A DNA stretch of 64,000 nucleotides from a virus, in the IMG/VR virus record IMGVR_UViG_3300033074_002003; one strand, given 5' to 3'. Positions 6,261 through 63,308 of this stretch are shown in pieces. The notes under the pieces are model-generated. The model searched no databases, was not told the DNA's origin, and saw only the letters and a list, made by a program, of their open reading frames with translations. The translations under genes were made by a program, and so were the position numbers. The number at the start of each line of letters is the position of its first letter. Position 1 is the first letter of the stretch.

Positions 6261-6640
6261 TGCTTAACGTTCGCTCTGTGGCGGTCGAGGGCATTGGGTT
6301 CGGCCCGCTCGCACTCGCGAAGATGGGATTCATCGACCTACTCGAAGAGGCACCCGCGGACGCCGAGACACAACAGGTACAAGGTCCCTGGCGTCGGTGG
6401 GGATCTTCTGCGAGGTCTCGAAGTGAGAGAGACGAAAATCGCGAAATCTATGTCGTCGTTCGTCTCAATACGAAACTCATAGAGGGCGAAGAACCACTCG
6501 TGGGACGACAGAGAATGAAGATCGACGCGAAACCGATCAAGATATCGACTTCGGGCGTGTCTGTTGAGAGGTCTGAGATCAGCGTCGTCGCAGAGGGACC
6601 GACAGTCACTAGAAAATCGCACGCGAGGAAATTTGTGTGA
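6257..6640 (+). CDS. Hypothetical protein.
   Basis: A 127-aa ORF whose start overlaps the upstream stop (GTGATG). Confidence 0.4.
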   Translation: MMLNVRSVAVEGIGFGPLALAKMGFIDLLEEAPADAETQQVQGPWRRWGSSARSRSERDENREIYVVVRLNTKLIEGEEPLVGRQRMKIDAKPIKISTSGVSVERSEISVVAEGPTVTRKSHARKFV

Positions 6641-6646
6641 TACTTA
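6639..6646 (+). promoter_or_regulatory. ATACTTA motif instance (GATACTTA), 22 nt upstream of the 6668 start.
   Basis: Recurring motif; see findings. Confidence 0.3.
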
Positions 6647-6667
6647 TGCGAAGCGAGAGGGCACAAA

Positions 6668-7204
6668 ATGGAGAGAGTCGAGCTGAAGCTTGATGAAGCT
6701 AGCGACCTGACGTTCAAGGTCATGATCGAGGGGACGAAAGAGTCCGCTTCAGAAATTCGCCTCATCTGCATCGGAGACGACGTTTCGTACGTCTTCAAGG
6801 GTACAATGACAGAAGAGGTGAACGAGGTCCGCGTTGCCGTCCCCTCAATGAAGGACAAGATCAAAGAGGGTCTCTACGAGACGAAGCTGGAAGTCATCAT
6901 CGAGGGGCGGTGCATCTCACCACTCCAGTTCCTCACGAATTTCAAAGAGGGCGTGAAGGTCGTCGCAGAATCCGTGAAGATCGCTGAGAAGCCACACTCG
7001 TCCGGTCCACAGGTCACGGCTTCTGTCGTCGGGAAACCGATCGTTGTCACGAAGAGGGTCGCGCCCGTCGAAGAGCGACCAAAAGAGACTGTCACAAAAG
7101 AAGCGCAAGTAGAGGCAGTTCGACCCGCAGCGGTTGTCACCGAAGAGGCTTCACCACCTGTCACGTTGCGTCAGCTGTATTCGACCAAGAAATCGAAGAA
7201 GTAA
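6668..7204 (+). CDS. Hypothetical protein with a K/E/V-rich C-terminal tail.
   Basis: A 178-aa ORF with an aagg-type RBS upstream. Confidence 0.55.
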   Translation: MERVELKLDEASDLTFKVMIEGTKESASEIRLICIGDDVSYVFKGTMTEEVNEVRVAVPSMKDKIKEGLYETKLEVIIEGRCISPLQFLTNFKEGVKVVAESVKIAEKPHSSGPQVTASVVGKPIVVTKRVAPVEERPKETVTKEAQVEAVRPAAVVTEEASPPVTLRQLYSTKKSKK

Positions 7205-7226
7205 CGCAGGGGTCACCAGATAATTC

Positions 7227-7260
7227 TGCCCGTGTCATACGTAACCATATGACACGGGCA
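7227..7260 (+). promoter_or_regulatory. A 13-bp perfect inverted repeat (TGCCCGTGTCATA - 8 nt - TATGACACGGGCA) whose right arm contains the ATG of the patatin-like gene. Candidate translational attenuator and/or terminator for the upstream gene.
   Basis: Read directly from the sequence. The right arm spans 7248..7260 and the ATG is at 7249..7251. Confidence 0.5.
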
Positions 7261-8118
7261 TTGGTACTTTCTGGGGGTGCTTGCAAGGGAAGCTATCAGG
7301 TCGGCGTGCTCCGCAAGTGGATGCTTGAGGAGCGCCGAGAGTACGACATCTTCTGTGGAGTCTCTGTCGGCGCGCTCAATGTTTCGCTCCTCGCGCACTA
7401 CAGGGACTCGCGCGAGGCACAGTTCGCTCTCGAAAATGTGTGGAGGCATCACGTAAGCAATGACGCGATCTATCGGAGGTGGTTCCCATTTGGGAGGGTC
7501 TCTGGCCTCTGGAAACACTCGCTATTCGACTCGTCTCCCCTCAGAGAGCTCGTCATGTCTCGCATTGATGTGCAGAAGATCAGGGAGTCAGGAAAGAGAC
7601 TGTCTGTCGGAGCTGTCTGTCTTGAGACCGGAGAGAAGGTGTTCGGCACTGAGGAGGACGATAACCTCGCCGAATGGGTCCTTGCGTCAGCGAGCTATCC
7701 GGTTTTTTTCACACCCGTGAACATCGGTGGCAGGTTCTGGTTCGACGGTGCGGTGAAAAACATGACGCCGCTCGGCAGAGCGATCGAGCTCGGCGCGACC
7801 GAAATAGACATGATCGTGTGTAGCAATCCTGATGTGCAGCGTCCGGTTCCGCAGCAACAGAAGTCTTTTCCGCTGTACAGGCAGATTTCGCGCGTCGTTG
7901 ACGTGATGTCGGACCAGGTGCTGCGGACAGACATGCAAATCACGTCACTGAAGAACCAGCTCTCACGAGCCCGCGGCGACCTCAGACCAGTGACAGTCAG
8001 GTACGTCCAACCCGCAGAGCGACTCACAGAAAATTCGTTCGACTTCGATCCTAAGACGATATCCAAGATGATCGAAAAGGGCTATAGAGATGCCTCTGAT
8101 GGAACTCTGATCCTCTGA
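7249..8118 (+). CDS. Patatin-like phospholipase.
   Basis: An oxyanion GGxxKG-like motif (LSGGACKGSYQVGVL), a GxSxG nucleophile (GVSVGA) and a DGA catalytic Asp (FDGAV) appear in canonical patatin order. Confidence 0.8.
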   Translation: MTRALVLSGGACKGSYQVGVLRKWMLEERREYDIFCGVSVGALNVSLLAHYRDSREAQFALENVWRHHVSNDAIYRRWFPFGRVSGLWKHSLFDSSPLRELVMSRIDVQKIRESGKRLSVGAVCLETGEKVFGTEEDDNLAEWVLASASYPVFFTPVNIGGRFWFDGAVKNMTPLGRAIELGATEIDMIVCSNPDVQRPVPQQQKSFPLYRQISRVVDVMSDQVLRTDMQITSLKNQLSRARGDLRPVTVRYVQPAERLTENSFDFDPKTISKMIEKGYRDASDGTLIL

Positions 8119-8154
8119 TGAACATCTTCTGCACATTGTTCTACATTTGCTACA

Positions 8155-8598
8155 ATGATGCGCAAGACACAGGTCACTAGGGCGATCAAGAGGGTCGATC
8201 GCTGGCTGCGACTATCAGGTTGGGATGTTGTGCGGTCTGCAAATGTCGTTGACATGGCAGATTTTGACTCTTGCATCCTCTACAACAAGAAGACACGCAG
8301 TGACGAGTGCATGTTGTATTCTCTGCTTCACGAGTGTGGTCACGTAATCGACGGTGAAGATGCTGTGAGTAGGATTTCTTTCACGGAGCCGAAGAAGAAG
8401 AAGACGAGGAAGTGGCGAGTCGCGGTCGTTGTCGGTGAGATGCGAGCATGGGACTCTGGAGCTCGCCTAGCTTCAACACTTCGAATCAAGATCGACAGGG
8501 AGAAGTTTGACACATACAGGGCGCGCTACCTCGGAAAGTACTTCTACTGGGGCGCTCTCGGAGAAAAAAGCCTATTGAAGAGCGGATATTGTGACTGA
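8155..8598 (+). CDS. Putative HEXXH zinc metallopeptidase-like protein (ImmA/IrrE or SprT-like).
   Basis: The motif LLHECGHVIDG contains HEXXH. The ORF is 147 aa. Confidence 0.4.
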   Translation: MMRKTQVTRAIKRVDRWLRLSGWDVVRSANVVDMADFDSCILYNKKTRSDECMLYSLLHECGHVIDGEDAVSRISFTEPKKKKTRKWRVAVVVGEMRAWDSGARLASTLRIKIDREKFDTYRARYLGKYFYWGALGEKSLLKSGYCD

Positions 8599-8615: not shown

Positions 8616-8689
8616 GGACACGTAGTCTAACTGGCAGCGATGGCCGACTCAAAATCAGCAGTGTGTGGGTTCGAATCCCACCGTGTCCA
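8616..8689 (+). tRNA. tRNA with anticodon CAA. It has type I (short variable arm) geometry, a mismatch in the D-stem and a C-A mismatch in the anticodon stem, so it is non-canonical for tRNA-Leu.
   Basis: Hand-folded. The acceptor pairs GGACACG with CGTGTCC, the T-arm is GTGGG-TTCGAAT-CCCAC, the anticodon loop is CTCAAAA (U33, A37) and the discriminator is A. Confidence 0.5.
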
Positions 8690-8697
8690 CGACAAAT

Positions 8698-8769
8698 AGG
8701 CCCGTGATGTAGCTGGAAGCATTGACGATTCCAAATCGTTACGCGCAGGTTCGAATCCTGCCGGGTCTG
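8698..8769 (+). tRNA. tRNA-Trp (anticodon CCA).
   Basis: Hand-folded. The acceptor pairs AGGCCCG with CGGGTCT (one G-U), the D-arm is ATGT-AGCTGGAA-GCAT, the anticodon arm is GACGA-TTCCAAA-TCGTT and the T-arm is GCAGG-TTCGAAT-CCTGC. Total length is 72 nt. Confidence 0.8.
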
Positions 8770-8776
8770 CGAAAAT

Positions 8777-8848
8777 GTCCCTGTAGCTCAGGAGAAGAGC
8801 GGGCGCCTTCTAAGCGCAAGGTCGGGGGTGCGAATCCTCCCAGGGATG
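8777..8848 (+). tRNA. tRNA-Arg (anticodon TCT). CCA is encoded immediately 3' at 8849..8851.
   Basis: Hand-folded. The acceptor pairs GTCCCTG with CAGGGAT, the D-arm is GCTC-AGGAGAA-GAGC, the anticodon loop is CTTCTAA and the T-arm is GGGGG-TGCGAAT-CCTCC. Confidence 0.75.
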
Positions 8849-8862
8849 CCAAGGAAAGAAAG

Positions 8863-9069: not shown

Positions 9070-10071
9070 ATGTCTGAATGGCTGCCCGAGGTTGTCAGGA
9101 TCGGTGAGGTATTTCCTCACCCAAATCGAGATCACGCCGATCCGAAGTTGAAATGTGATACGCTTTCGCTGACGATGGTTCACGGTGGCTATCCCGTGCT
9201 CTTTCGTACGGGCGAGTTCAAAGAGGGAGACCTCGCTGCCTACGTGCCGATCGATTCGGTCGTCCCAGAGAACCACCCGCTCTTTTCTTTCCTGGGTGAC
9301 AGCCGCAGGATCAAGGCGAAGAGGATGCGTGGCGTATTCTCGATGGGAATGCTCGTGAGAGCACCGGACGGTCTCGCGGAGGGTTCTTCTGTCGTCGAGG
9401 CACTGAACCTCACGAAGTACGAGCCCAAAGAAGAGACGCTGAAGATGTCGAGGGGTGTGAGCATCCCGGGACCCTCGGGATGGGAATTTCCGAAGTACAC
9501 AGACATAGAAGGAATTAGGCGCTACAAGCACGTCCTCCTCGAGGGTGAGGAAGTCGTCATCACTGAGAAGATCCACGGGCAGAACGCGCGGTTCTGTTGG
9601 GATCCCGACGACAAGAAGCTGTGGGTCGGATCTCGAACGACGATCAAGAAGCGCGACGCGACCGTGAACTGGTGGCACATCGCAAACAAGCTTGATCTGG
9701 AGGAGAAGCTCGCGAAGTTCCCACTCACGATCTTCTTCGGCGAGGTCTATGGCAAGTCGATTCAGGACCTCGCGTACGGACTCGAGCACAAGGATCTTCT
9801 CATCTTTGACACATTCGACGTGAAGACTGGCACGTACAACGACTGGGACGCGACAGTCGCTCTTGTCAAGGAAGCCGGGCTCAATCTCGTTCCGACGTTG
9901 TATCGCGGCCCGTGGCTCGGGTTTGAGGCACACAAACCCCTCTCGGAAGGAAAGTCTACGATCTGTGATCACATACGCGAAGGGTATGTGGTGAAACCCG
10001 TACACGAGCGCCGGGAACACATGGGACGGGTGATCCTGAAATGCGTGGGTGAAGATTACATGACGAGGTGA
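9070..10071 (+). CDS. RNA ligase 2 (Rnl2)-family ATP-dependent polynucleotide ligase.
   Basis: Motif I is EKIHGQN (KxHG), motif III is FFGEVYG, motif IV is LIFDTFDV and motif V is EGYVVKP. A ggag RBS lies upstream. Confidence 0.8.
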   Translation: MSEWLPEVVRIGEVFPHPNRDHADPKLKCDTLSLTMVHGGYPVLFRTGEFKEGDLAAYVPIDSVVPENHPLFSFLGDSRRIKAKRMRGVFSMGMLVRAPDGLAEGSSVVEALNLTKYEPKEETLKMSRGVSIPGPSGWEFPKYTDIEGIRRYKHVLLEGEEVVITEKIHGQNARFCWDPDDKKLWVGSRTTIKKRDATVNWWHIANKLDLEEKLAKFPLTIFFGEVYGKSIQDLAYGLEHKDLLIFDTFDVKTGTYNDWDATVALVKEAGLNLVPTLYRGPWLGFEAHKPLSEGKSTICDHIREGYVVKPVHERREHMGRVILKCVGEDYMTR

Positions 10072-11340: not shown

Positions 11341-11360
11341 TAGCCGTCAGAAGAAGTAGA

Positions 11361-11387
11361 GAAGGGCCCTTCTGGGCCCTTCTTGTT
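11361..11387. terminator. Bidirectional rho-independent terminator (GAAGGGCCC-ttct-GGGCCCTTC, then TTGTT) between convergent genes.
   Basis: A 9-bp GC-rich perfect stem has A-rich sequence upstream and T-rich sequence downstream. It sits between the + gene 11080..11340 and the - gene 11389..11766. Confidence 0.6.
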
Positions 11388-11388
11388 A

Positions 11389-11766
11389 TCACGTGACTTC
11401 TATCTTTCGTTTCTGCGAACCTTCTTTTTTCGGTATTTTGAGATGTAGCACGCCTGCATCGTATTTTGCTGTCATAGAGCCCACGTCATAGCTTTCGTTC
11501 ACAACGAACGTCTGCGAAATAGACTTGCTTGTCCCGACGCTTTTCTTTGCAGCGACAGAGACATTACGGCCCGTGCACTCTACGGTGATGTCCTCTTTGA
11601 GACACCCGGGAACGTCAAAGAAAATCGTGAGCCCATTTTCGTCAGTGCTCTTTTCGAACTTGTGATATCGATCGTCGTCAGCAAAGAGTTCAGAACGAAA
11701 CAGGCGAGCGAGCTGAAGTTCAGGGTACATGTTTTTCCTCCGTGCTCGCAACGATAAAACACACAC
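11389..11766 (-). CDS. Small heat-shock protein of the Hsp20/alpha-crystallin family. The start may be the internal Met, which would give 11389..11730.
   Basis: The alpha-crystallin domain is recognisable: FDVPGCLKEDITVE...VSV...SQTF..E...D...AKYDAGVLHLKIPK. Confidence 0.8.
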   Translation of the reverse strand: MCVLSLRARRKNMYPELQLARLFRSELFADDDRYHKFEKSTDENGLTIFFDVPGCLKEDITVECTGRNVSVAAKKSVGTSKSISQTFVVNESYDVGSMTAKYDAGVLHLKIPKKEGSQKRKIEVT

Positions 11767-12548
11767 AACGAAGCGTACATACCATGATCACAGAATTTGA
11801 TCGAAAAATGAAGTCTCTCGAGAAGTTTTCTTCACAGAGCGTTCCCAGTGGGACGTCTTTTGTTGTGAGGCTCGACGGTAGGTCATTTTCAAAGATGACA
11901 GAGAAGCACTTCAGGAAGCCATTTGACCCGCTGTTCAGCGCGATCATGGATAGAGTGACTGATAGCCTCGTGCGTGAGTTTGATTGCGTCGCGGCATTCA
12001 CACAGAGCGATGAGATTTCGCTGCTGTTTGCACCCGAGAACAAGCTATTTGCCGGCCGGCTCGAGAAAATTGTGAGCGTCACGGCATCGCACGCGTCCGC
12101 TGTGTTCACGAGGGCGTTCACTGACATCGTTACGTTTGACAGTCGAGTGATCGTTCCCGACAGCATCGGCGACCTGTCTTCTTACTTCACGTGGAGATTT
12201 GTGGACGGGTGCAGAAATGCGCTTAACACTGCGTGCTACTGGAACATGCGACAGTCGGGTGAGTCACGCCGTGCGGTGTCGAGGCGACTCGAGAGTGTCT
12301 CCCAGAACGAGAAGCTAGAACTTCTTGGGCAGAGGTGGGAGGACATCGATGAGAGGTTTCGGTTCGGACGTGTAACCGTGTGGGAACAATTCGAAGTAGT
12401 GGGATACAATCCCGTATTGAAAGAAGAGAGGAAGGCTACGCGCAGAGAGCTCGTGAGCTTTACCGATCCGAAGAAATTCACAGAGCTGCGTCACAAATGG
12501 TTCGCAGCAGAGAAAGAGAAAGAAGATGCGAGCAGCCTGGCTATCTGA
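11742..12548 (+). CDS. Thg1-like protein (tRNA-His guanylyltransferase family, 3'-5' nucleotidyltransferase).
   Basis: VVRLDGRSFSK...KPFD aligns with Thg1 VVRIDGKKFHEF...KPND. TQSDEISLLF aligns with GESDEYSFIL. FDSRVIVP aligns with FDSRCVAYP. WRFVDG aligns with WRYVDT. Confidence 0.9.
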   Translation: MLATIKHTQRSVHTMITEFDRKMKSLEKFSSQSVPSGTSFVVRLDGRSFSKMTEKHFRKPFDPLFSAIMDRVTDSLVREFDCVAAFTQSDEISLLFAPENKLFAGRLEKIVSVTASHASAVFTRAFTDIVTFDSRVIVPDSIGDLSSYFTWRFVDGCRNALNTACYWNMRQSGESRRAVSRRLESVSQNEKLELLGQRWEDIDERFRFGRVTVWEQFEVVGYNPVLKEERKATRRELVSFTDPKKFTELRHKWFAAEKEKEDASSLAI

Positions 12549-17847: not shown

Positions 17848-20800
17848 ATGGCAGAACAGACATTTCGTTCGCCAGGATTTTACGAGTCTGAGATTGATGC
17901 CGGCAACAGTGCAGCTACCCCAACAGGTACTCCAGCTGGTGTCGTTGGCACATCAGACAAGGGTCCTGCGTTCGTTCCGATTACTGTCGGTTCGTTTTCC
18001 GACTTCAAGGCGAAGTTCGGCGGTCTCAATCCCAAGAAGTACGGTCCTTACGCTGTCAAGTCATTTCTCGATAGCAAGAATGCCTGTACGTTCGTCCGCG
18101 TCCTCGGCGCCGGTGCTAACAACCTGGAGTCTGAGATTACGACGACAGAGCTCACCGGAAAGGTAAAGAACGCCGGATTCGTCATTGCTGGCACCGCGGC
18201 AAATGCGGGTGTCGGTGGAACTGACGGTCGTTACAAGGGTGCGGTTCAGCTTCTTACCGCGCGTCACACGCTTCAGACAAATGAGGCGTTCGGCATCCCG
18301 ATGTTCAGTGACTCTGACGCATACCTCGGTGCTTCGTCAGTTCACCTCGTCCGCGCGATGGTCCTTCTCGCTTCTGGCACGAGGATGATGGTTGTCAACG
18401 GTGATGAGCCCGTGACAGGAGTGTTCGGTTCTCTGGTACCCGATGACTACGCGACGGTTGCCTCTGGCAAGTTCAAGCTCATCCTCTCTTCGACGGACGG
18501 AACTGCATTCGGTGTTGCTGATGGCCTCTCTGGCCTCAAAGTTTACACCGCGTCGCTCGATCCCTCGAGCACCGATTACATCGGCAAGCTGCTCAACTCT
18601 GATCCCGATCGCTTTGCTACCGATCAACACCTTCTCTACGCAGATTTTGCCGTCGACAATGAGGTCGCGACAGCTACTGCAGTCGGCGTTGCATCAGGCT
18701 CTTCGAACACATCACAGACGTCCGGAGACACTTCGCTAGCATTCCGCGAGGCTTTCGGTCGCTTCGACACACGCTACACGACTCCGCGTACGACGATGTT
18801 CATCTCGCAGCCGTTCGGAAAGGTCGAGTATGACCTCTTCTACTTCGAGACACTGGACGACGGTGAGTACGCAAATACCCTCTACAAGGTTTCGATCTCT
18901 AACGTAAGAGCGTCTTCCGATCCGTCGAGCCCATGGGGCACGTTCCAAGTGCTCATTCGTTCGTTCGATGATACGGACGCAAATCCGAAGGTCCTCGAGC
19001 GCTTCCCAAACCTGACGCTCGACCCGAACTCTGATCGCTACATTGCGAAGGTGATCGGTGACCGTGAAGTTAGCTACAACTTCGACGCGACCGACATTGC
19101 AGAGCGCCGCCTTGTCGTCTCCGGCAAGTACAAGAACGCTTCGCGCTACTGCCGTGTTATCGTAAGTGATGCCGTTCGCGATGGGCTTGTCCCGCAGAAC
19201 GTGTTGCCTTTCGGCTTCAGGGGCATTCCGGTTCTGAAGACAAATGACAACCTTACCGATGTCGGTTCTTCGAACCCGCGTCGCCTTGGCATGTCTTTCG
19301 GTCTGAACGTGACATCGTCACTCTCTGGTAGCATCGTGCCGCCCGTTCCCTTCCGACTGAAGGTCACAAAGGGAGACGTTGGCACCTCGGGCTTCACAGG
19401 AAATCCCGGTGCAACGGAGATTGTCAACGCTTCATACTACTGGGGCGTGAAATTCGAGAGGAACACGACCCCTCTCAACCCGAACCCTGCGACAGAGAAG
19501 AACACTCTCATCGGATCGTTTGCGAAGTTCCTTGGAATTTCGAAGCTCGATACGCTTCTCACCGGTTCTGGTGCGGATACACAGAACAACAACAAGTTCA
19601 CGCTTGCAAACGTCGCGTTCTTGCAGCAGGCCGTGTCTGAGCTCACGGGTTCTCCTGTTCAGCACATGCGTGATGTTGCGTACATCAGGAACGCGCGCCC
19701 AGATCCGACATCCTACACCGTGAACGACGGTGTGATCACAAGAAGGATCACGTTCGCGACTCTTGCTGCACAGACGTCGTCCGTCGAGTTCAACAGGTTC
19801 ACGGCGTACGCGAAGTTCACGAACTTCTTCTACGGTGGGTTCGATGGTGTGAACATCCTCGACAGGAACGCTCGTCGAATGAACGACAAGGCGAGTTCCT
19901 TCTCGTCGTATGGTGGAGCAGAGTCTTCGTACGTGTCGCCGGGCCTCAGCAGCAACGTAGGTGGAGCGGGCGTGTCAAACAACGTCGTCTACTCCTACAA
20001 GATTGCCGCAACGATCATGACAGATCCGATGACGGTGAACACAAACATCCTCGCTCTTCCTGGCATCAGGGAGTCGTACATCACGGATTACGTCGCCGAG
20101 AGGGCAAAAGAGTACGGTCTTGCACTGTATGTCCTCGATATCCCGTCCTACGACGAGGACAACAACCGCCTGTACGATGATTCTGTCGCGCGTCCGAGCG
20201 TCGACAAGACGGCGAAGAACTTCGAGTCGAGGGCCATCGACAACAGCTACCTCACGACATACTGGCCGGATGTCTCGCTCGATGACACCGACAATAAGCG
20301 TAGGGTCACGACTCCCGCTTCTGTCGCTGCTCTTGCGGCTCTCGGTTTCAATGACAAGGTCGGCTACCCGTGGTTCGCACCCGCTGGCTTCAATCGCGCG
20401 GCACTTGACTTCGTGAAGAATGTTGGCGTGAGACTGTCAAACTCTGACAGGGATCGCCTGCAGGACGCGCGCATCAACCCGATCGCATCGTTCCCGAAAG
20501 AGGGATTCGTCATCTACGGTCAGAAGACGCTTCAGCAGATGCGAAGCGCCCTCGACAGGGTAAACGTGAGGCGCCTCGTCCTCGAGGTGAAGAGGCTCGT
20601 TGTCGAGCGTGCTCGCAAGCTCGTCTTCGAGAACGGTCTCCCAGAAGAGCGCGACAATTTCGTGAAGGACGTTACGACACAACTCGGCCTCATTCAGACA
20701 CAGGCCGGTCTCGAGTCGTTCAGCGTCACAATGGACGACACGAACAACACACAGGCTGACTTGGACGATCACAGGGTGAACGGCTCAATCGTTCTCGTTC

Positions 20801-20868
20801 CGACGAAGACGATCGAGTTCATCAGCATTGACTTTGTGATCGCCAACGGGCAGGTCACGTTCGTCTGA
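17848..20868 (+). CDS. Tail sheath protein, gp18-like, paralog 1.
   Basis: The N-terminus TGTPAGVVGTSDKGPAFVPITVGSFSDFKAKFG matches T4 gp18 STGTAALAGKFQWGPAF...FG. The conserved C-terminal domain is present (NPIASFP...GQKTL...LDRVNVRRL...VPTKTIEFISIDF). Confidence 0.85.
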   Translation: MAEQTFRSPGFYESEIDAGNSAATPTGTPAGVVGTSDKGPAFVPITVGSFSDFKAKFGGLNPKKYGPYAVKSFLDSKNACTFVRVLGAGANNLESEITTTELTGKVKNAGFVIAGTAANAGVGGTDGRYKGAVQLLTARHTLQTNEAFGIPMFSDSDAYLGASSVHLVRAMVLLASGTRMMVVNGDEPVTGVFGSLVPDDYATVASGKFKLILSSTDGTAFGVADGLSGLKVYTASLDPSSTDYIGKLLNSDPDRFATDQHLLYADFAVDNEVATATAVGVASGSSNTSQTSGDTSLAFREAFGRFDTRYTTPRTTMFISQPFGKVEYDLFYFETLDDGEYANTLYKVSISNVRASSDPSSPWGTFQVLIRSFDDTDANPKVLERFPNLTLDPNSDRYIAKVIGDREVSYNFDATDIAERRLVVSGKYKNASRYCRVIVSDAVRDGLVPQNVLPFGFRGIPVLKTNDNLTDVGSSNPRRLGMSFGLNVTSSLSGSIVPPVPFRLKVTKGDVGTSGFTGNPGATEIVNASYYWGVKFERNTTPLNPNPATEKNTLIGSFAKFLGISKLDTLLTGSGADTQNNNKFTLANVAFLQQAVSELTGSPVQHMRDVAYIRNARPDPTSYTVNDGVITRRITFATLAAQTSSVEFNRFTAYAKFTNFFYGGFDGVNILDRNARRMNDKASSFSSYGGAESSYVSPGLSSNVGGAGVSNNVVYSYKIAATIMTDPMTVNTNILALPGIRESYITDYVAERAKEYGLALYVLDIPSYDEDNNRLYDDSVARPSVDKTAKNFESRAIDNSYLTTYWPDVSLDDTDNKRRVTTPASVAALAALGFNDKVGYPWFAPAGFNRAALDFVKNVGVRLSNSDRDRLQDARINPIASFPKEGFVIYGQKTLQQMRSALDRVNVRRLVLEVKRLVVERARKLVFENGLPEERDNFVKDVTTQLGLIQTQAGLESFSVTMDDTNNTQADLDDHRVNGSIVLVPTKTIEFISIDFVIANGQVTFV

Positions 20869-20912: not shown

Positions 20913-23900
20913 ATGGCAGGGTCAAAATTCAGCAGTGCCGGTGTTTCCACGACGGAGATCGATCGGTCCGGTCCTCGGACAGTCGAACCGACAGGTACGC
21001 CAGCAGGCGTCATCGGTACCTCTCTGAAGGGCCCAGCCTTCGTTCCTGTGACTGTCGCTGTGGACGATGACTTCTACTCTGTCTTCGGAAAGACTGATGG
21101 AAAGAAGTTCGGACCTCTCGCGATGGTTGAGTGGCTACGTAACTCTCGCGCAGGTACATACCTTCGCGTCCTCGGTGCTGGTAAAGCACAGCGCAGGCTC
21201 ACGAACGGAGCGAACGTTGGCAGCGTCGAAGGTGCGGGGTTCGTTGTGGGAGCTCAGCTTCCAGACTCCAGCACGGGTGCTCTGACAAACAACCCGTACG
21301 CAAACCTCAACGGTCCCCCAGGAAGGATGTACTTCTTGGGCGCGCTCATGTCGGAGTCGCTGAACTCTACGGTGTTCTCGGACGCGGGACTTCAGGGTCC
21401 TGGTGGTAAGGCACTTCACACAACGGCATCAATCCCGATCGTTCGCGGTGTTGTCATGGCCGCTTCTGGCGTTCTCCTGAGGATGTCTTCGTCTCGCGAT
21501 GGCACAAACTCTGCGCCTGCTTCTACACTTGCTGGTACAGACGCCGGTTCGAACGGTCAGATCATTGGCGCGGTGAAGCTCCTCGAGTCGGGTGTTTCGA
21601 AGCAGGAGTTCGTCATTCTCTTGAACGGACACAAGGGAACTGATGCATCATACCCGAACGCCATCACGGCGTCCTTCGATGTGACAGCACCAAACTACTT
21701 CGGTAACGTCCTCAACAAAGATCCCTACAAGATTGCGCAGGCCGGTCACTACCTCTACGCACAGTACGACATTCACGGCGCGCAGGCGGTCGTGACGGGT
21801 ACTGGAATCGTTTCGACTGCTCTCTCCGCTGGCGGTGGTATCGCTACTGGCTTCGAGGAAGCGGCGTTCATCACGTCGGGTTCTGCCGCCCGCAATACGG
21901 GTGCGGCGAACATCCCCAACTACGAAAACTGGGAGGATCGCTACGACACGGGTAAGACGCCGTGGGTGATCTCGCAGAGGTTCGGTGGTTCACCGGCAAA
22001 CCTCTTCAGATTCTGGATGTTTGACGACGGTGCTGACGTCGCAAACAAGATCAAGATCTCGATCGAGAGCATCACGCCCTCGACAGATCCTACGAACAAG
22101 TACGGCACATTCGATGTCGTGATTCGTAGGTGGGAAGACCGCGACACAGACGCGAAGATCCTCGAGTCGTACAGGGGCGTCAACCTCGATCCTTCGTCTG
22201 ACAAGTACATCGCGAAGGCGATCGGTGATCAGAACATCTACTACGACTGGGAACACGTTGACGACGCGCAGAAGCTCGTTGTCCTCGGCAACTTCCCACG
22301 CGTTTCGAACTACGTTCGCGTAGAGGTAGACTCGCAGGTCGACTCCACGGAGATGGACGCGACAGCTCTTCCGATGGGCTTCCGCGGCGCTCCGCACCTC
22401 ATCACTTCTGGTTCTATGCCGCTCACGAAGGGGTCAGATACGGCCTTCGTCTCGACAGCAACGGGATACGTCGGAAGGGCGGTCCAACCACCGGTTCCCA
22501 TGAGGACAAACATCACAGCGGGATCTGGTGCCTCGCGTGTCGTGAACTCGTCGTACTACTGGGGTGTTCAGTTCGAGCAGGTATCGAACCTCGACCTCCC
22601 GAACGCGTCGTCTGTCCAGAACAAGACGGTCACTAACCTCACGAAGTACTTCCCAAACTTCCAGACGGTAAACGCAAATGTTCTCGCCGAGGACAACTCG
22701 GGCGTCGCAGAGTCGACGACCATGGGTGTGCTCGATGTCGATAGGTTCAACAATAACCTGTTCTCTCTCGAGAACCTCCAGGTTGTCACGAACTCCGCGG
22801 GCTACGCAGATGCGTCCCAGTGGGCATCTGCGGCATACGTCAGGAACGGCGCGATCGCGGCGTCCGATTCGGCGAAGACCCGTGCGTTCAGGCTCACAGA
22901 CCTCACACAGCAGTCGAACAGGAAGTTCGCAAAGTTCTCGCTCTTCGTACAGGGTGGGTTTAACGGCGTGAACATCTTTGACAGGGACGCAGCTGAGCTC
23001 ACGAACAACGCAATTGCGTACGAGATGGCGAACTCCTCACGCGGACTCACCGATGGTCCAACGGTGAAGACGTACCGCAAGGCGATCGATATCATGAAGA
23101 GCACGACAGATGTCGATGTGAAGCTCCTCGTGGCTCCTGGCATCAGGAACCCGATTGTCACCGACTACATGATCAGCGCCGTCGAGGATCGCTTCGACGC
23201 CCTCTACATCATGGACATCGAGGAGAACGACACACACAACCTCCTCGTGACATCCTCGGGACAGACACCGAACGTTCAGTACACCGCGGCTCGCCTCGCG
23301 GACCGCGCACTGAACACGTCCTTCGCGGCAGCTTACTACCCCGACGTCATCATGACAGACCCGAACACACTGACGAACGTCGTTGTGCCACCCTCTGTCG
23401 CGGTGCTCGGAGCGTTCGCTGTGAACGACTCGCTCGCACACCCGTGGTTCGCGCCCGCTGGCTTCGCTCGTGGAGCGCTTGCATCGACGCTCGAGGCGAC
23501 GATCAAGCTCAGCAAGGACAACATGGATACGCTGTCCGACGTCGACATCAACCCGATCGTCGCGTTCCCGGGTTCTTCGCCCACGGGTGCGGATCCAAAG
23601 CCGGGCGGCGTCGTGGTGTGGGGACAGAAGACGCTGTACTCGGTCGCCTCGTCGCTTGACAGGGTGAACGTGCGTCGACTCCTCATCGAGATCCGCAGGA
23701 TGGTCAGGGAGATCTCCAACCTGATCGTGTTCGAGCCCAACCGCGAGGCGACGCTGTCCCGCTTCTCAAACCTCGTGAACCCTCGCCTCGCGAAGGTTCA
23801 GGTGCAGGGCGGTGTCACGAAGTTCCTCGTGAAGATCGATACATCGACCACGACACAGAACGACATCGACAACAACACAATTCGCGGTCAGATCTTCGTC

Positions 23901-23963
23901 ATTCCGACGAAGACGATCGAGACGGTCTCCATCGACTTCATCGTGTCAAATCCTGGCACCTGA
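20913..23963 (+). CDS. Tail sheath protein, gp18-like, paralog 2.
   Basis: The same N-terminal motifs (TGTPAGVIGTSLKGPAFVPVTV) and C-terminal motifs (NPIVAFP...WGQKTL...LDRVNVRRL...IPTKTIETVSIDF) as paralog 1. Confidence 0.85.
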   Translation: MAGSKFSSAGVSTTEIDRSGPRTVEPTGTPAGVIGTSLKGPAFVPVTVAVDDDFYSVFGKTDGKKFGPLAMVEWLRNSRAGTYLRVLGAGKAQRRLTNGANVGSVEGAGFVVGAQLPDSSTGALTNNPYANLNGPPGRMYFLGALMSESLNSTVFSDAGLQGPGGKALHTTASIPIVRGVVMAASGVLLRMSSSRDGTNSAPASTLAGTDAGSNGQIIGAVKLLESGVSKQEFVILLNGHKGTDASYPNAITASFDVTAPNYFGNVLNKDPYKIAQAGHYLYAQYDIHGAQAVVTGTGIVSTALSAGGGIATGFEEAAFITSGSAARNTGAANIPNYENWEDRYDTGKTPWVISQRFGGSPANLFRFWMFDDGADVANKIKISIESITPSTDPTNKYGTFDVVIRRWEDRDTDAKILESYRGVNLDPSSDKYIAKAIGDQNIYYDWEHVDDAQKLVVLGNFPRVSNYVRVEVDSQVDSTEMDATALPMGFRGAPHLITSGSMPLTKGSDTAFVSTATGYVGRAVQPPVPMRTNITAGSGASRVVNSSYYWGVQFEQVSNLDLPNASSVQNKTVTNLTKYFPNFQTVNANVLAEDNSGVAESTTMGVLDVDRFNNNLFSLENLQVVTNSAGYADASQWASAAYVRNGAIAASDSAKTRAFRLTDLTQQSNRKFAKFSLFVQGGFNGVNIFDRDAAELTNNAIAYEMANSSRGLTDGPTVKTYRKAIDIMKSTTDVDVKLLVAPGIRNPIVTDYMISAVEDRFDALYIMDIEENDTHNLLVTSSGQTPNVQYTAARLADRALNTSFAAAYYPDVIMTDPNTLTNVVVPPSVAVLGAFAVNDSLAHPWFAPAGFARGALASTLEATIKLSKDNMDTLSDVDINPIVAFPGSSPTGADPKPGGVVVWGQKTLYSVASSLDRVNVRRLLIEIRRMVREISNLIVFEPNREATLSRFSNLVNPRLAKVQVQGGVTKFLVKIDTSTTTQNDIDNNTIRGQIFVIPTKTIETVSIDFIVSNPGT

Positions 23964-27357: not shown

Positions 27358-27383
27358 TCTCGACTCTGGATCGTTGCACCGCT

Positions 27384-27420
27384 CGAAAGGCCCTACGATG
27401 GGCCTTTCGACGTTTAATTT
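27384..27420 (+). terminator. Rho-independent terminator (CGAAAGGCCC-tacgat-GGGCCTTTCG, then ACGTTTAATTTT) after the tube gene.
   Basis: A 10-bp perfect stem and a T-rich tail lie immediately downstream of the tube gene stop. Confidence 0.55.
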
Positions 27421-55490: not shown

Positions 55491-58400
55491 ATGACACAAG
55501 CACAGCAATCACAGGCAAAGAGTTTCAGCAGTGACGAAGTTGTAGAGAGAACGGCAGAGTATTTCGGCGGCGATAAGATGGCAGGAGCTGTATTCTTGAA
55601 GTACGCTCTGCCTGCAGATGACGGCGGTTTCTTGGAACTGTCGCCGCCTGACATGCACGCTAGACTCGCTAGAGAATTGGCTCGGATAGAGAACAGATAC
55701 TCTAACCCAATGTCCGAGGAAGAAATTCTAGGGTTGCTCAGCAGGCCCTCGCACAGGAAGCTGGGCATGGGTCCCATCATCCCGCAGGGCTCGCCGATGG
55801 CGGGCATCGGAAATACGAAGCAGTTCCAGAGCATCTCAAATTGCTTCGTGATCGACTCTCCTTACGACTCTTTCGGGGGAATCTTCCATACTGACGAGGA
55901 AGAGGCCGAGATCATGAAGAGGCGCGGGGGTGTCGGATTTGACGTCTCGACGCTTCGCCCGAAAGATGTGAAGACCTCGAACGCTGCTGGCACGACAGAC
56001 GGCATCGGTGTGTTCCTCGAGCGCTACAGCGCGACATGTCGCGGCACCGCACAGAACGGACGCCGCGGCGCGCTCATGCTCACGATCTCAATCAGACACC
56101 CCGAGATCGAGACGTTCATCAACATCAAGCGTGACCTGAAGAAGGTGACAGGCGCAAACATCTCAATCCGTGTCACAGACGACTTCATGGTTGCCGTCGA
56201 GAACGATGAATACTTCACGCTGCAGTGGCCGGTAGACGTGCCGCTCTCAGAGGCGAAGATCACTCGAGAAGTCAGAGCTCGTGACATCTGGGACCAGATC
56301 ATCGATGCGGCCTGGAACAGCGCCGAGCCCGGTGTTCTCTTCTGGGATACCGTGAAGAGAAATTCTCCGGCTGACGCATACGCCTCGGTTGGATTTAGTT
56401 CAGTCTCGACAAATCCATGTGTTGTAGGAGACACGTTGATCGCTGTTGCTGACGGTAGAAATGCTGTGTCAATTAGACAATTGGCAGAAGAGGGTCGCGA
56501 CGTACCTGTGTATTCTACTGATATTGCTACAGGAAAGGTTGAGATCAAGTGGGGAAGATCTCCTAGACTGACAAAAGTTCAAGCAGAGGTTTGGAAACTG
56601 ACACTTGATGATGGCACGTGTGTCATTGCGACACCTGATCACAAGATTTTGCTTAGAAATTTGACGTATGTGAATTTGCAGGATCTCAAGTCAGGTGACT
56701 CAATTTTCCCATTTTCGACGTTCGACTCTAATGGATATCGTCAGGTATGCAATACTGGCGTACCCATGACGGGTGGTGCAAGGCGGAACAGACGTCAATA
56801 TCGACTGATTCACGAATTTTTTAACGGGAGCACTGATTCAAAGTTGTTTGCGATTCATCATTGTGATTTTGATTCTAGAAATGACAGAATCGAAAACTTG
56901 AAAGTGATGACGCACGATGAACATCGAGAACTACATTCGCGCCTAATGATTGGTGATAATAATCCGTATCACAGGATGTCATCTGAATGGAAGCTAAAGT
57001 TTGCAAAACATTCTGGCGAATCTAATGGTAGATTTTCGGGCCACACTAACGAGCAGCTTCTAGAAGCTGGGCGTCGTGTATTCGAAGAAAATGGAAAGAT
57101 AACACGAGCTCTTTGGAAAGAATATGCCAAGAAGCACGCGTTCCCGCAATTTCTTGCAAATCAATTTAGATTTGGAAGTTGGCAAAATTTTGCCAACCAA
57201 GTCTCGAGCAATCACAAAGTTGTTTCTGTTGAAAAAATCGGTACAGAAGACGTTTACAACATCACCGTAGATGACAATCACAACTACCACGTCATCACTT
57301 CTTTGGACGAAAATGGTGTTGTCTCTTCTGGTATTTGTGTCAAAAATTGTGGGGAAATTCCTCTTTCGAGTGGGGACTCGTGCCGGCTACTCGTAATCGA
57401 TCTCACACATTTCGTCGTTTCGCCATTTACCCCCGAGGCTCACTTTGATTTCACTGAGTTTGAAAGGGTCGTCGGAAAGGCCCAGCGACTCATGGACGAT
57501 ATCGTTGACCTCGAGGTCGAAGCAGTCGACAGGATCATCGAGAAGATCGAGTCAGATCCAGAACCCGAGTACATCAAGGCACGCGAGCTCTCACTCTGGC
57601 GTCGAATCAGGGACACTGGGTTGAGAGGACGCAGGACCGGATTCGGTGTCACCGCGCTGGGCGACGCCCTCGCTCTTCTTGACCTGAAGTACGGACAGTT
57701 CGATGCGATCTCGATGACCGATCGAATCTATCGTAGCTTGGCACTGGGCGCCTACAGGTCGAGCGTCGACCTCGCGGAAGAGCGGGGCGCGTTCCCGGCA
57801 TACGATCCGAAGCTCGAGGCCGGTCACCCGTTCTTGAGTCGCATCCGCGCCGAAGATCCAGCTCTCGCAGAGAAGATGGATCGCGTCGGGCGTCGAAACA
57901 TCGCGCTCACGACAACTGCGCCGGTCGGTTCTACCTCGATGCTCACGCAGACTACAAGCGGTATCGAGCCGCTGTTCAAGCCGTTCTACGTCCGGAAAAA
58001 GAAGGTCAGCGGCGCGACGGAACCGAACGCAGAGCTGATCGTCGACGAGATGGGCGATAGGTGGCAGAAGTTCAACGTCTACCATCACTACCTCAAAGAG
58101 TGGATGGACATCACTGGGAACTCTAACATTGACGAGTCTCCGTATGCAGGTGCCTCGGCAAACGAAATCGACTGGCTTGGGTCTGTCGCGATGCAGGCCG
58201 CTGCACAGAAGTGGGTGTGTCACAGCATCTCAAAGACGTGCAACCTGCCGAAAGACGTGAGCCATGATGTTGTGTCTGACGTCTACATGAATGCGTGGAA
58301 GACGGGTTGCAAGGGCTTCACGATCTACAGGGACGAATCTAGAGACGGCGTGCTCGTGTCTGAGGACGCTGTGATGTTCGACGTGAAGAAGCGCACAGAT

Positions 58401-59141
58401 GGCGTTCCCACACGTGAGCTCGAGCGACAGGTCGAGATCGGCGAGCGCTTCGCGAAGTACATGCCGTCCGGGTATGTCTCATTCCTGCAACAGGTGAGAG
58501 ACGCGATCGCCGCGCGCAAAAACCCATCGCTCGGGGCCGTCGTAGATCGCGTAGTCGAGACGAAGCTGCACTCAGAGAAGAGGCCCAAGGAACTTCCTTG
58601 CGAAATTCACCGTGTCAACGTGAGGGCGAAAGACGACAGCGGCGACATCACGACACAGACGTACATCGTGCTTCTTGGCTTGTTGAACGGGAAGCCCTAT
58701 GAGATCTTCTGCGGCCTCTCGGAACACGTCGACGTTCCGAAGAAGTGCAAGAATGGCGTGCTCGTGAAGAATGGCAAGAAGGCCGGCGTCGCGACGTACA
58801 ACCTCAGGATCCCGATCGGAGACGATGACGACGCGATCGTGCTGAAGGACGTCGTGAATCTCTTTGAGAACGCCACATACGGTGCTTTCACGAGGATCCT
58901 GTCCCTCGCGCTGCGCCACGAGATTCCGCTGCAATTTGTTGTGGAACAGCTGCAGAAGGACAAGTACTCAGACATGCAGAGTTTTTCTCGTGTCATTGCG
59001 AGGGTCCTGAAGCACCACATTCTAGACGGTACGCCCGTCTCGGGTGAGAAGAAGTGTGATAGCTGCGGGGCCGAGGGGACGCTTGTCTACGAGGAGAAGT
59101 GTACCAAGTGCACCGCGTGCGGGAACGGGAAGTGCGGATAG
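55491..59141 (+). CDS. nrdJ: Class II (adenosylcobalamin-type, NrdJ-like) ribonucleotide reductase interrupted by an intein immediately before the catalytic NPCGE cysteine.
   Basis: ISNCFV, GGVGFDVSTLRP and a C-terminal zinc ribbon (CDSCGAEG...CTKCTACGNGKCG) are present. The extein junction reads STNP|C...N|CGEIPL. Confidence 0.85.
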   Translation: MTQAQQSQAKSFSSDEVVERTAEYFGGDKMAGAVFLKYALPADDGGFLELSPPDMHARLARELARIENRYSNPMSEEEILGLLSRPSHRKLGMGPIIPQGSPMAGIGNTKQFQSISNCFVIDSPYDSFGGIFHTDEEEAEIMKRRGGVGFDVSTLRPKDVKTSNAAGTTDGIGVFLERYSATCRGTAQNGRRGALMLTISIRHPEIETFINIKRDLKKVTGANISIRVTDDFMVAVENDEYFTLQWPVDVPLSEAKITREVRARDIWDQIIDAAWNSAEPGVLFWDTVKRNSPADAYASVGFSSVSTNPCVVGDTLIAVADGRNAVSIRQLAEEGRDVPVYSTDIATGKVEIKWGRSPRLTKVQAEVWKLTLDDGTCVIATPDHKILLRNLTYVNLQDLKSGDSIFPFSTFDSNGYRQVCNTGVPMTGGARRNRRQYRLIHEFFNGSTDSKLFAIHHCDFDSRNDRIENLKVMTHDEHRELHSRLMIGDNNPYHRMSSEWKLKFAKHSGESNGRFSGHTNEQLLEAGRRVFEENGKITRALWKEYAKKHAFPQFLANQFRFGSWQNFANQVSSNHKVVSVEKIGTEDVYNITVDDNHNYHVITSLDENGVVSSGICVKNCGEIPLSSGDSCRLLVIDLTHFVVSPFTPEAHFDFTEFERVVGKAQRLMDDIVDLEVEAVDRIIEKIESDPEPEYIKARELSLWRRIRDTGLRGRRTGFGVTALGDALALLDLKYGQFDAISMTDRIYRSLALGAYRSSVDLAEERGAFPAYDPKLEAGHPFLSRIRAEDPALAEKMDRVGRRNIALTTTAPVGSTSMLTQTTSGIEPLFKPFYVRKKKVSGATEPNAELIVDEMGDRWQKFNVYHHYLKEWMDITGNSNIDESPYAGASANEIDWLGSVAMQAAAQKWVCHSISKTCNLPKDVSHDVVSDVYMNAWKTGCKGFTIYRDESRDGVLVSEDAVMFDVKKRTDGVPTRELERQVEIGERFAKYMPSGYVSFLQQVRDAIAARKNPSLGAVVDRVVETKLHSEKRPKELPCEIHRVNVRAKDDSGDITTQTYIVLLGLLNGKPYEIFCGLSEHVDVPKKCKNGVLVKNGKKAGVATYNLRIPIGDDDDAIVLKDVVNLFENATYGAFTRILSLALRHEIPLQFVVEQLQKDKYSDMQSFSRVIARVLKHHILDGTPVSGEKKCDSCGAEGTLVYEEKCTKCTACGNGKCG
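56418..57347 (+). mobile_element. Intein of 310 aa with an embedded HNH homing-endonuclease domain inside nrdJ.
   Basis: It starts with CVVGDTLIAV (block A) and ends VYNITVDDNHNYHV...NGVVSSGICVKN followed by C (blocks F/G). HNH reads HHCDFDSRNDRIENL...HDEH. The intein is about 42% GC versus about 58% in the flanking extein. Confidence 0.8.
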
Positions 59142-62183: not shown

Positions 62184-62199
62184 TTCCTTTCTGAACACA

Positions 62200-62232
62200 C
62201 TGCATGCACTCTGTAATATGAGTGCATGCAGT
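62200..62232 (+). promoter_or_regulatory. A 12-bp inverted repeat (CTGCATGCACTC - 8 nt - GAGTGCATGCAG) whose right arm contains the ATG of the nucleotidyltransferase gene.
   Basis: Read directly from the sequence. This is the same arrangement as the hairpin at 7227..7260. Confidence 0.45.
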
Positions 62233-63308
62233 TTGACGTTTCAGAGCGGACGATTTACCTCGCAGTTCACGGCAGTACCGCGTACGGCACGAATACACCC
62301 GAGTCAGATCTTGATATCAAGGGTGTGTGTGTTCCACCCGCGTGTTACTACACGGGTTTTTCGTATGTCTTCGAGCAGGAAGAGCGTATGGTGTCGAAAG
62401 GTCACTCAGAGGACAGGGTCACCTATTCCGTGGAGAAGTTCTTCTCGCTCGCAGCGGATTGCAATCCCAACATCATCGAGGTGCTGTTCGTTGACGATTC
62501 AGACGTCCTGAAGTGCAATGACCTCGGGAAGCTGATGAGGGAAAATCGCGATCTCTTCCTCTCGAAGAGAGCGAAGCACACATTCAGTGGGTACGCACAC
62601 GCGCAGCTTCACAGGATCCAGACGCATCGCAGGTGGTTGCTCGACGCCTCGAAGTACGAGTCAACGCTTCCAAAGCGCAGCGATTTCGACCTGCCCGAAT
62701 TCGAGTCCAAGAAGGACGCGAACCAGATTCTCACCGCCCTCGCTCTTGTCCAGAAGAGGCTCGACGAGTGGAACGTTGACTTCAGAGAATTTGACAACGC
62801 CGAGAGGATTCGCCTACAGAACAAGCTCGCCCAATTTTTCGTGGAGGCTGGCGTCCTCGGCGATGACCTCTGGTCTCGAGCGGCCCAGGCTGTTTTCGGC
62901 GTGGACGAGAACCTGATCCATCGCCTACAACGCGAACGCGCGTACGCGAATCAGTGCTCTGACTGGGAGAAGTACGCTAACTGGAAGCGTTCGCGCAATC
63001 CGAAGCGCGCTGCTCTCGAGGCGAAGTTTGGGTACGACACGAAGCACGGCGGCCATTTGATCCGTCTCATGAGGATGTGCAAGGAAATCCTCTCAGGACA
63101 GGGCGTCATCGTGAAGCGACCCGATGCCAAGGAGATCCTCGCGATCAGGAACGGCTTGTGGTCGTATGAGAAGCTCATCGAGGAGTCTGAGAAGCTCGAG
63201 GCAGAGTGCAACGCGCTCTACGATACGTCAGCGCTTCCGCACAAGCCGAACGTTGCGCGACTTAATGAGTTGTGTTCGCAGATCGTGACACTTGGGATAG
63301 TGAGGTAG
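62226..63308 (+). CDS. Pol-beta-superfamily nucleotidyltransferase of unknown specificity.
   Basis: VHGSTAYGTNTPESDLDIKGV is a GS-x9-DxD NTase motif. The remaining ~300 aa form a helical C-terminal domain. Confidence 0.65.
   Translation: MQFDVSERTIYLAVHGSTAYGTNTPESDLDIKGVCVPPACYYTGFSYVFEQEERMVSKGHSEDRVTYSVEKFFSLAADCNPNIIEVLFVDDSDVLKCNDLGKLMRENRDLFLSKRAKHTFSGYAHAQLHRIQTHRRWLLDASKYESTLPKRSDFDLPEFESKKDANQILTALALVQKRLDEWNVDFREFDNAERIRLQNKLAQFFVEAGVLGDDLWSRAAQAVFGVDENLIHRLQRERAYANQCSDWEKYANWKRSRNPKRAALEAKFGYDTKHGGHLIRLMRMCKEILSGQGVIVKRPDAKEILAIRNGLWSYEKLIEESEKLEAECNALYDTSALPHKPNVARLNELCSQIVTLGIVR

Follow-up and report, generated by a model that had tools for sequence, protein, structure and literature searches.

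Inhibitory hairpins at gene starts have been described for the T4 genes e (lysozyme), soc, 49 and I-TevI and for mobE of phage Aeh1 (PMC3014915, PMC2988022). In the T4 cases, a promoter lies in the DNA coding for the helix's 5' strand, and only the short late transcripts are translated (PMC3014915, PMC2988022). Here we describe a perfect 13-bp hairpin at the start of a patatin-like phospholipase gene in the IMG/VR virus record IMGVR_UViG_3300033074_002003, of which a stretch of 64,000 nucleotides was analysed (the window; coordinates refer to it unless stated otherwise). Like the helices at T4 e, soc, 49 and I-TevI, it is stable and predicted to sequester the initiation region of a potentially harmful gene on read-through transcripts. 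A promoter-like hexamer, here a weak motif match, is found in the 5' arm and loop. In T4, the Shine-Dalgarno (SD) sequence is inside the helix and the late promoters (TATAAATA) are mapped; the patatin gene, in contrast, has no SD sequence, its AUG is itself in the stem, and the escape transcript would be leaderless. By analogy, the patatin hairpin may represent T4-like gating in a new form.

Hairpins at start codons can also be read by proteins. The MS2 coat protein/replicase hairpin is a translational operator of this kind, and the operator of T4 gp43 has a loop of 8 nt (AAUAACUC). The patatin hairpin resembles both in lying at or next to a start codon and in having a loop of defined sequence. 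Compared with the UAAC of the gp43 operator, the 8-nt loops of the patatin hairpin and of a second hairpin described below carry UAAC and UAAU at loop positions 3-6. The stems of the MS2 and gp43 operators are short (5-7 bp) and the protein is needed to repress, whereas the perfect 13-bp stem is predicted to repress unaided.

The hairpin and the gene that it masks

The element, the gene and the conserved block around the start are located as follows.

7227-7239, + strand: 5' arm, TGCCCGTGTCATA (= UGCCCGUGUCAUA), found by reading the sequence and by a repeat finder; the same in 21 of 21 strain loci
7240-7247, + strand: loop of 8 nt, CGTAACCA (= CGUAACCA); its positions 1-5 (NGUAA) are common to the second hairpin
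7248-7260, + strand: 3' arm, TATGACACGGGCA (= UAUGACACGGGCA), which holds the patatin ATG (7249-7251)
7249-8118, + strand: patatin-like phospholipase gene, 289 aa, without SD sequence; based on Pfam, an alignment of 38 sequences, the predicted fold and a ratio of non-synonymous to synonymous substitution rates (dN/dS) of 0.025
7218-7289, + strand: substitution-free block of 72 nt, the same in 21 of 21 strain loci, including those that are ~9% diverged overall

A sequence-only reading of this DNA had placed the ATG within the right arm of a perfect 13-bp inverted repeat. Both the sequence itself and the repeat finder confirm this: the arms are 13 nt each and 100% complementary, and the ATG, at positions 2-4 of the 3' arm, is the first codon of the open reading frame (ORF) 7249-8118. 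The folding energy of the RNA from 7215 to 7275, proposed there as a check, was computed as -29.0 kcal/mol, compared to -12.6 +/- 2.5 kcal/mol for shuffled sequences (z = -6.5; 0 of 200 shuffles were as good). A longer segment (7205-7290) gave -38.2 kcal/mol (z = -4.9), and the hairpin on its own -22.0 kcal/mol. The hairpin at the patatin start is genuine and beyond chance. Perfect hairpins of at least 12 bp with a loop of 3-12 nt occur twice in the whole window and never in 30 mononucleotide shuffles, and the analytic chance expectation is ~0.01.

An Rfam search of the hairpin gave sub-threshold miRNA-like noise and no matching RNA family. No other copy of the palindrome half-site was found in the window, where a tolerance of up to 3 mismatches yielded scattered matches only. 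The exact core sequence of the hairpin was found elsewhere only in L001, a 99%-identical twin strain. Beyond its 13 bp, the duplex is accompanied by interrupted outer helices. One of these (7206-7220 / 7270-7284) was not supported as a conserved part of the structure, as the exchange C7217G in the 91%-identical strains breaks one pair without a compensating change.

Most genes of the window possess GGAG-type SD sites. The patatin gene does not have an SD sequence: with +0.6 kcal/mol for pairing to the anti-SD, it ranks 42 of 44 genes. The opening energy of its region from -15 to +12 is 22.4 kcal/mol (median of the 44 genes ~12), and the only higher value, 27.9 kcal/mol, belongs to ATG 62226 at the second hairpin. 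In the predicted fold, the pairing probability of the patatin AUG is 1.0. According to these calculations, the hairpin is thermodynamically able to block initiation; the earlier claim that a structure occludes the start agrees with the predicted stem (-22 kcal/mol), the AUG pairing and the opening energy.

The masked gene encodes a true patatin with an intact Ser-Asp dyad and oxyanion loop, for which phospholipase activity can be predicted. The Pfam model Patatin (PF01734) matches residues 5-178 with E = 2e-33 and 116.7 bits (gathering threshold 27.7). The canonical motifs noted earlier (GGxxKG, GVSVG and DGA) are backed by Pfam, alignment and fold alike. In the 38 aligned homologues, the oxyanion loop GGACKG (residues 9-14) has invariant G9, G10 and G14 and a K13 that is conserved in at least 90%. 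The nucleophile motif G37-V-S39-V-G41 and D166-G167 of the DGA motif with the catalytic Asp are invariant, so that the two catalytic residues, S39 and D166, are not the non-conserved positions that had been considered as an objection. The AlphaFold model (mean predicted local distance difference test, pLDDT, 88.4) shows the patatin alpha/beta fold and matches CapV, PlpD, Pat17, CapE, VipD and iPLA2-beta with a Foldseek probability of 1.00, and ExoU is also among the best PDB matches.

A search of 5.8 billion proteins returned 769 relatives at E <= 1e-3. Those listed are nearly all 284-309 aa long and 43-59% identical, and many are encoded on contigs of 100-400 kb. IMG/VR contains 168 patatin loci, many of them on contigs of 100-500 kb. 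No PHROG match was obtained at E <= 1e-5, and across 50,697 deposited phage genomes the nearest relative shows 28% identity.

Since the homologues begin with M[RK]ALVLSGG, ATG 7249 is the true start. Translation from a downstream start, which had been named as a possible objection, would cost invariant residues in both cases considered. M25, the sole downstream ATG, would delete the invariant GGxxKG oxyanion loop, and TTG 7261, which sits at the foot of the stem, would remove the invariant A4. The JGI calls at the loci L098-L104 do begin the patatin at M25 (265 aa) and lose the GGxxKG loop, probably because the gene caller responded to the missing SD sequence. For annotation, the lesson is that the M25 start strips the oxyanion loop from a patatin.

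No close relatives suitable for covariation analysis were found in IMG/VR, and strain variants were taken from cluster members instead (21 loci, 90-99.9% nucleotide identity). A comparison with the ~91%-identical strains gave 96 synonymous and 12 non-synonymous differences for the patatin gene (synonymous divergence, dS, 0.735; dN/dS 0.025), whose synonymous sites are nearly half saturated. Because of this low ratio, the gene is clearly functional by the measure of sequence evolution. If the 31 non-coding bases 7218-7248 evolved like synonymous sites, zero changes would have P ~2e-9. For zero changes in the opening of the ORF we obtained P ~1e-3, a value computed on the first 14 codons, one of which has a third-position change at 7290. 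The strain comparison thus indicates that the hairpin region is under strong purifying selection.

A second hairpin 55 kb away

The other perfect hairpin of the window has the same architecture and masks a different gene.

62199-62232, + strand: second hairpin, ACTGCATGCACTC / TGTAATAT / GAGTGCATGCAGT, 13 bp, perfect, loop UGUAAUAU; AUG 62226 is in the 3' arm; z = -6.5
62226-63308, + strand: RlaP-like nucleotidyltransferase gene without SD sequence; Pfam PF10127 with E = 4.9e-19; by its opening energy of 27.9 kcal/mol the least accessible start in the window

Both hairpins have a 13-bp stem and an 8-nt loop with GUAA at loop positions 2-5. They also share an SD-less AUG in the 3' arm, flanking helices, and a position 15-22 nt past the preceding stop codon (15 nt for the second hairpin). 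Their stem sequences are unrelated. The flanking helices bring the duplexes to ~22-25 bp, and the helix of the second hairpin is near-continuous (~23 bp).

Strains with 89.5% identity differ from the window in three positions of the second hairpin: one C-G pair becomes U·G, one U-A pair becomes U·G, and loop position 6, outside the GUAA, is exchanged. Both stem changes preserve pairing in the + sense RNA only. Because of this, the substitutions favour a structure in the mRNA over a palindrome in the DNA, with the weak statistics of two events.

The two genes do not carry such hairpins throughout their families. We located the start codon and folded the region from -45 to +25 in ~80 patatin loci. 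A long stem over the AUG was present only in the window and its twin L001. The next best perfect stems over the start had 7-8 bp, the median minimum free energy was -13.7 kcal/mol, and many loci had an ordinary SD sequence. In L002, a 58%-identical relative, the patatin start forms an ATGA overlap with the upstream gene and is preceded by the SD sequence AAGAAGG. A trait of the patatin family was therefore rejected, as no distant locus (~75-80 folded) showed a perfect stem of more than 8 bp over the start. The same applies to a conserved feature of RlaP starts: distant RlaP loci in other phages do not have such a hairpin. No further member of the class was found in 10 kb beyond the window (~74 kb in total) or in ~160 other jumbo-phage loci. 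A look-alike in L031 (4972-4997) lies inside conserved coding sequence and was judged accidental.

The sequence-only reading had suggested tight translational control of a potentially host-toxic lipase of lysis timing, superinfection or anti-defence. A tie of the hairpin to the patatin as such is not supported, with distant patatin loci lacking the hairpin and the second hairpin masking an unrelated gene. Because the latter is a nucleotidyltransferase, the element is a lineage-specific gene-junction device and not a specific answer to lipase toxicity.

Proposed occlusion and relief, and competing explanations

At the patatin start, translation should hardly be able to initiate in the ordinary way. 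Selection on the gene is nevertheless strongly purifying, and the phage must therefore unmask the start. From the mechanism of unmasking, one would learn how the timing of a potentially self-destructive enzyme is set in an uncultured giant phage, and it would test T4-style hairpin gating as a general solution in large lytic phages. The features that bear on it are these.

6640-7204, + strand: upstream unit, in which the promoter-like motif ATACTTAT (6640-6647) is followed by a 178-aa gene (6668-7204); this gene has an SD sequence, and its initiation region ranks second in openness in the window
644, 6640, 10075, 13327, 14675, 16580, 17797, 20883, 30283, 41054, 52826 and 55469, + strand: starts of the 8-mer of the promoter-like motif, from a motif scan
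7238-7243, + strand: hypothetical -10-like hexamer TACGTA, a weak candidate that covers -11..-6 relative to the A of the AUG and reaches from the end of the 5' arm into the loop

As the reading that we prefer, tentatively and at somewhat less than an even chance, we propose that the start codon is occluded on read-through mRNA and that a short leaderless transcript gives relief, similar to T4 e, soc and I-TevI. The likely source of RNA with the whole hairpin is the upstream unit. The hairpin begins 22 nt past the stop codon of its gene, and the terminator scan flagged no T-tract terminator in between. On transcripts that read through from the gene at 6668-7204, which is probably strongly expressed, the + strand stem-loop would lock the patatin AUG in the 13-bp helix. 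Since the patatin gene lacks an SD sequence, such transcripts would be essentially untranslatable for the phospholipase, judging from thermodynamics and conservation; we infer that translation from them is blocked. The enzyme should nevertheless be made, because its gene is under strong purifying selection, and this would require some form of the RNA without the 5' arm or with the 5' arm opened.

Among the routes of relief, we favour, hypothetically, a leaderless transcript from an internal weak promoter. A short transcript would begin at or beside the AUG, driven by the weak phage-type -10-like element TACGTA, and this leaderless mRNA could not form the hairpin. In the predicted structure of an RNA starting at 7249, the 5' AUG is unpaired. 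The net effect would be a low, promoter-gated and probably late expression of the membrane-active enzyme, and the patatin gene would be shielded from its heavily transcribed structural neighbour.

The basis for this proposal is a promoter-like motif, [T/C]G-ATACTTAG, that we found on the + strand in front of at least 12 genes, the two sheath genes among them. The motif is similar to an extended -10 element, but its hexamer is unusual. Two spacings occur: the motif lies 14-43 nt from the ATG, in most cases separated from it by an SD sequence that can be recognised, or it lies 4-5 nt from the ATG and no SD sequence is present. The latter arrangement is seen in the SD-less genes 13340, 16593 and 10087, where the motif ends 4-5 nt before the ATG, which suggests these genes as candidates for leaderless mRNAs. 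Gene 16593 has a 10-bp hairpin (3 G·U) in which the motif makes up the 5' arm and the 3' arm begins with AUG. At the patatin gene, ATACGTAA (7237-7244) ends 4 nt before the ATG and has a position weight matrix score of 4.4 bits (rank 98 of 63,978 positions). The spacing of TACGTA is that of the SD-less gene 10087 (TACATA) and is one base off in 13340 and 16593. In related jumbo phages, TACTTA occurs 9-30 nt upstream of the patatin gene in 7 of 73 loci, with a background of 0.017 per 80 nt. Other promoter types did not yield a candidate: the T4 late promoter TATAAATA is not enriched in the window, and neither a promoter scan nor inspection by eye revealed a sigma-70 promoter for the patatin gene.

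Several observations weigh against relief by an internal promoter. The 4.4 bits at the patatin gene compare to 9.9-16.7 bits for credible sites, ATACGTAA has a G where all nine training sites have a T, and the match was found after the fact. The second hairpin has no motif match (best score -2.5), only a sigma-70-like TAATAT in the loop at -12..-7. Moreover, the shared NGUAA lies at different distances from the two AUGs, and therefore a promoter model leaves the resemblance of the loops unexplained. The longest invariant runs in this 4-kb stretch are all gene junctions or tRNAs; as all of its junctions are unusually conserved, conservation by itself does not single out the helix. The patatin hairpin also shows no covariation, since it never varies.

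The differing distances of the shared GUAA from the two AUGs point to a factor that recognises an RNA loop. Both hairpins might be sites for a trans-acting factor (an RNA-binding protein, a helicase or an RNase III-type endoribonuclease) that reads the NGUAA loop or the helix. Such a factor would open or cut the hairpin to switch on translation at a given time, or bind as a repressor like MS2 coat protein and T4 gp43. We consider this explanation unlikely. In its favour, the two hairpins have stems of unrelated sequence and yet agree in stem length, loop length, GUAA, SD-less AUG and flanking helices. It would also fit with the strains of 89.5% identity, in which loop position 6 is exchanged but the GUAA is not, and with the loop and flanks of the patatin hairpin being as invariant as its stem. 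In addition, the gp43 operators of both T4 and RB69 have -UAAC- in the loop (PMC3014915). The class is small, however, with two members in ~74 kb and none in the ~160 other jumbo-phage loci, and the loop similarity is based on two independent examples. No candidate binding protein was identified, and C7217G breaks the outer helix of the patatin hairpin without compensation. RNase III sites span about two turns of duplex RNA (at least ~20 bp) and often contain an internal loop; the second hairpin has a helix of ~23 bp, and the patatin hairpin has 13 bp plus interrupted outer helices, of which one pair is broken in the 91%-identical strains.

It is doubtful, too, that the hairpin mainly serves the 3' end of the upstream gene, as a factor-independent terminator or attenuator or by stopping 3' exonucleases, and overlaps the next start by tight packing, with patatin made at a low level from read-through RNA via breathing of the helix. 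Its position just past the stop of a gene with a promoter-like motif, an SD sequence and a very open initiation region would suit such a function. The second hairpin likewise follows a stop codon closely, and many related phages have a terminator-type hairpin 40-200 nt upstream of patatin. Like intrinsic terminators, the patatin hairpin has a stem with a GC-rich base directly downstream of a stop codon; unlike them, it lacks a U-tract, has an 8-nt loop and overlaps the next start codon. The DNA shows no T-tract after the stem (tail UUGGUACUUUCU), the terminator scan did not flag it, and the T-tract terminators that the window does contain (27383-27410 and 11360-11383) look different, with loops of 4-6 nt and A/T flanks. 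This also speaks against the possibility, raised earlier, that the hairpin is only a terminator. Furthermore, a 3'-end function leaves the missing SD sequence and the strict conservation of synonymous sites over the 29 nt downstream of the stem unexplained. A helix of -22 kcal/mol over an SD-less AUG should nearly abolish translation, yet dN/dS is 0.025.

A function of the palindrome at the level of double-stranded DNA, where it would be a cruciform or the operator of a dimeric DNA-binding protein and the RNA structure a by-product, is highly improbable: a perfect 13-bp repeat with an 8-bp spacer is a plausible geometry for dimer binding and the whole sequence is invariant, spacer included, but the arms of the two palindromes share no sequence, the window has no further half-site copy, and the arm changes of the second element give G·T, which is mismatched in a cruciform and breaks operator symmetry while being neutral in + strand RNA.

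Start-codon occlusion with relief by a leaderless transcript stays our preferred reading of the patatin hairpin. A broader proposal covers both hairpins. They might constitute a dedicated switch of this lineage, made of 13-bp stems with 8-nt NGUAA loops after stop codons and with the SD-less AUG of the following gene inside, which would be opened, cut or bypassed by a phage-specific factor, or would be silencers combined with leaderless promoters. We regard this as speculative, with a small chance of being correct. If true, the switch would set when a membrane-attacking phospholipase and an RNA-repair nucleotidyltransferase are translated. Possible roles of the phospholipase are lysis, entry or membrane remodelling.

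Genome context and comparison with other patatins

The source of the window is a jumbo myovirus. The gene content includes two tail-sheath paralogues, an intein-bearing ribonucleotide reductase, three tRNAs, RNA ligase and Thg1-like genes, and a patatin protein of identical sequence is present on a 329-kb contig. Around the patatin gene, the order is a gene for a 1070-aa protein, three small genes, patatin, a gene for a 147-aa HExxH protein and the tRNA cluster.

In other phages, the genes that recur near patatin mostly encode structural-region proteins without annotation, one being a T4 gp13-like neck protein. Further conserved neighbours are a cold-shock-like protein and HNH/GIY-YIG genes; lysis genes were not recognised among the conserved neighbours. 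The family is located in the tail and late structural module. This resembles phage WO of Wolbachia, where a patatin beside the tail module belongs to a putative lytic cassette and a role in lysis has been proposed (PMC9203015). For the roles in lysis timing, superinfection or anti-defence suggested earlier, this location is the single hint that the context provides. Unlike in the WO cassette, no holin-like neighbour of the window patatin was found, and the next gene encodes the soluble HExxH protein.

With CapV, CapE, PlpD, ExoU and Pat17, the window protein shares the fold, the Ser-Asp dyad and the glycine-rich oxyanion loop. It differs from them in sequence (12-23% identity) and in being a minimal, virus-encoded enzyme of 289 aa. 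The NCBIfam equivalog models were clearly missed (CapV NF041079, 40.9 bits with a cut-off of 200; RssA, 40 with 272), and the phospholipase effector models of PADLOC gave a weak match in the catalytic half (E = 6e-9). Pfam scans of the adjacent genes found no cyclase/CD-NTase or signalling-type neighbour; the scanned neighbours comprise proteins without a family hit, an RNA ligase, a weak DUF559 match below the threshold, and tRNAs. An effector of the type found in cyclic oligonucleotide-based antiphage signalling systems (CBASS) was ruled out on the CapV score and the gene context. Of the CBASS analogy that had been drawn earlier, the fold remains, while the equivalog score and the CD-NTase partner are missing.

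Homologues of the 178-aa upstream gene occur in 13 further patatin loci, where they typically follow patatin on the downstream side (median offset ~+1.7 kb); the two genes are linked, and their order is not fixed. After its TAA stop, the frame of the upstream gene (window 7202-7252) is open through the 5' arm and loop to a TGA at 7250-7252, which overlaps the patatin ATG as ATGA. Read-through of the stop would allow termination-reinitiation coupling; a suppressor tRNA was not seen in the window. In L013, a jumbo-phage contig from IMG/VR, there are seemingly two patatin paralogues (~4001 and 6147), about 2 kb apart.

A weaker hairpin is present at the next junction, and its relation to the main element is uncertain.

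8130-8162, + strand: weaker hairpin with AUG 8155 of the SD-less 147-aa gene in its 3' arm; z = -2.7

The 147-aa gene (8155-8598) encodes a HECGH motif, and the 89-nt junction 8101-8189 is unchanged in the 91%-identical strain L092. The tRNA cluster (8616-8851) comprises Leu-CAA, Trp-CCA and Arg-TCT. We also noticed an RNA-repair set of two RNA ligases, a Thg1-like protein, the RlaP-like nucleotidyltransferase and a PNKP-like kinase/phosphatase (9070-10071, ~11742-12548 and 62226-63308 of the window; 11085-13592 of L191). The large subunit of ribonucleotide reductase (55491-59141) contains an intein with an HNH endonuclease domain inside. The two tail-sheath paralogues (17848-20868 and 20913-23963) are adjacent and encode proteins of ~1000 aa each.

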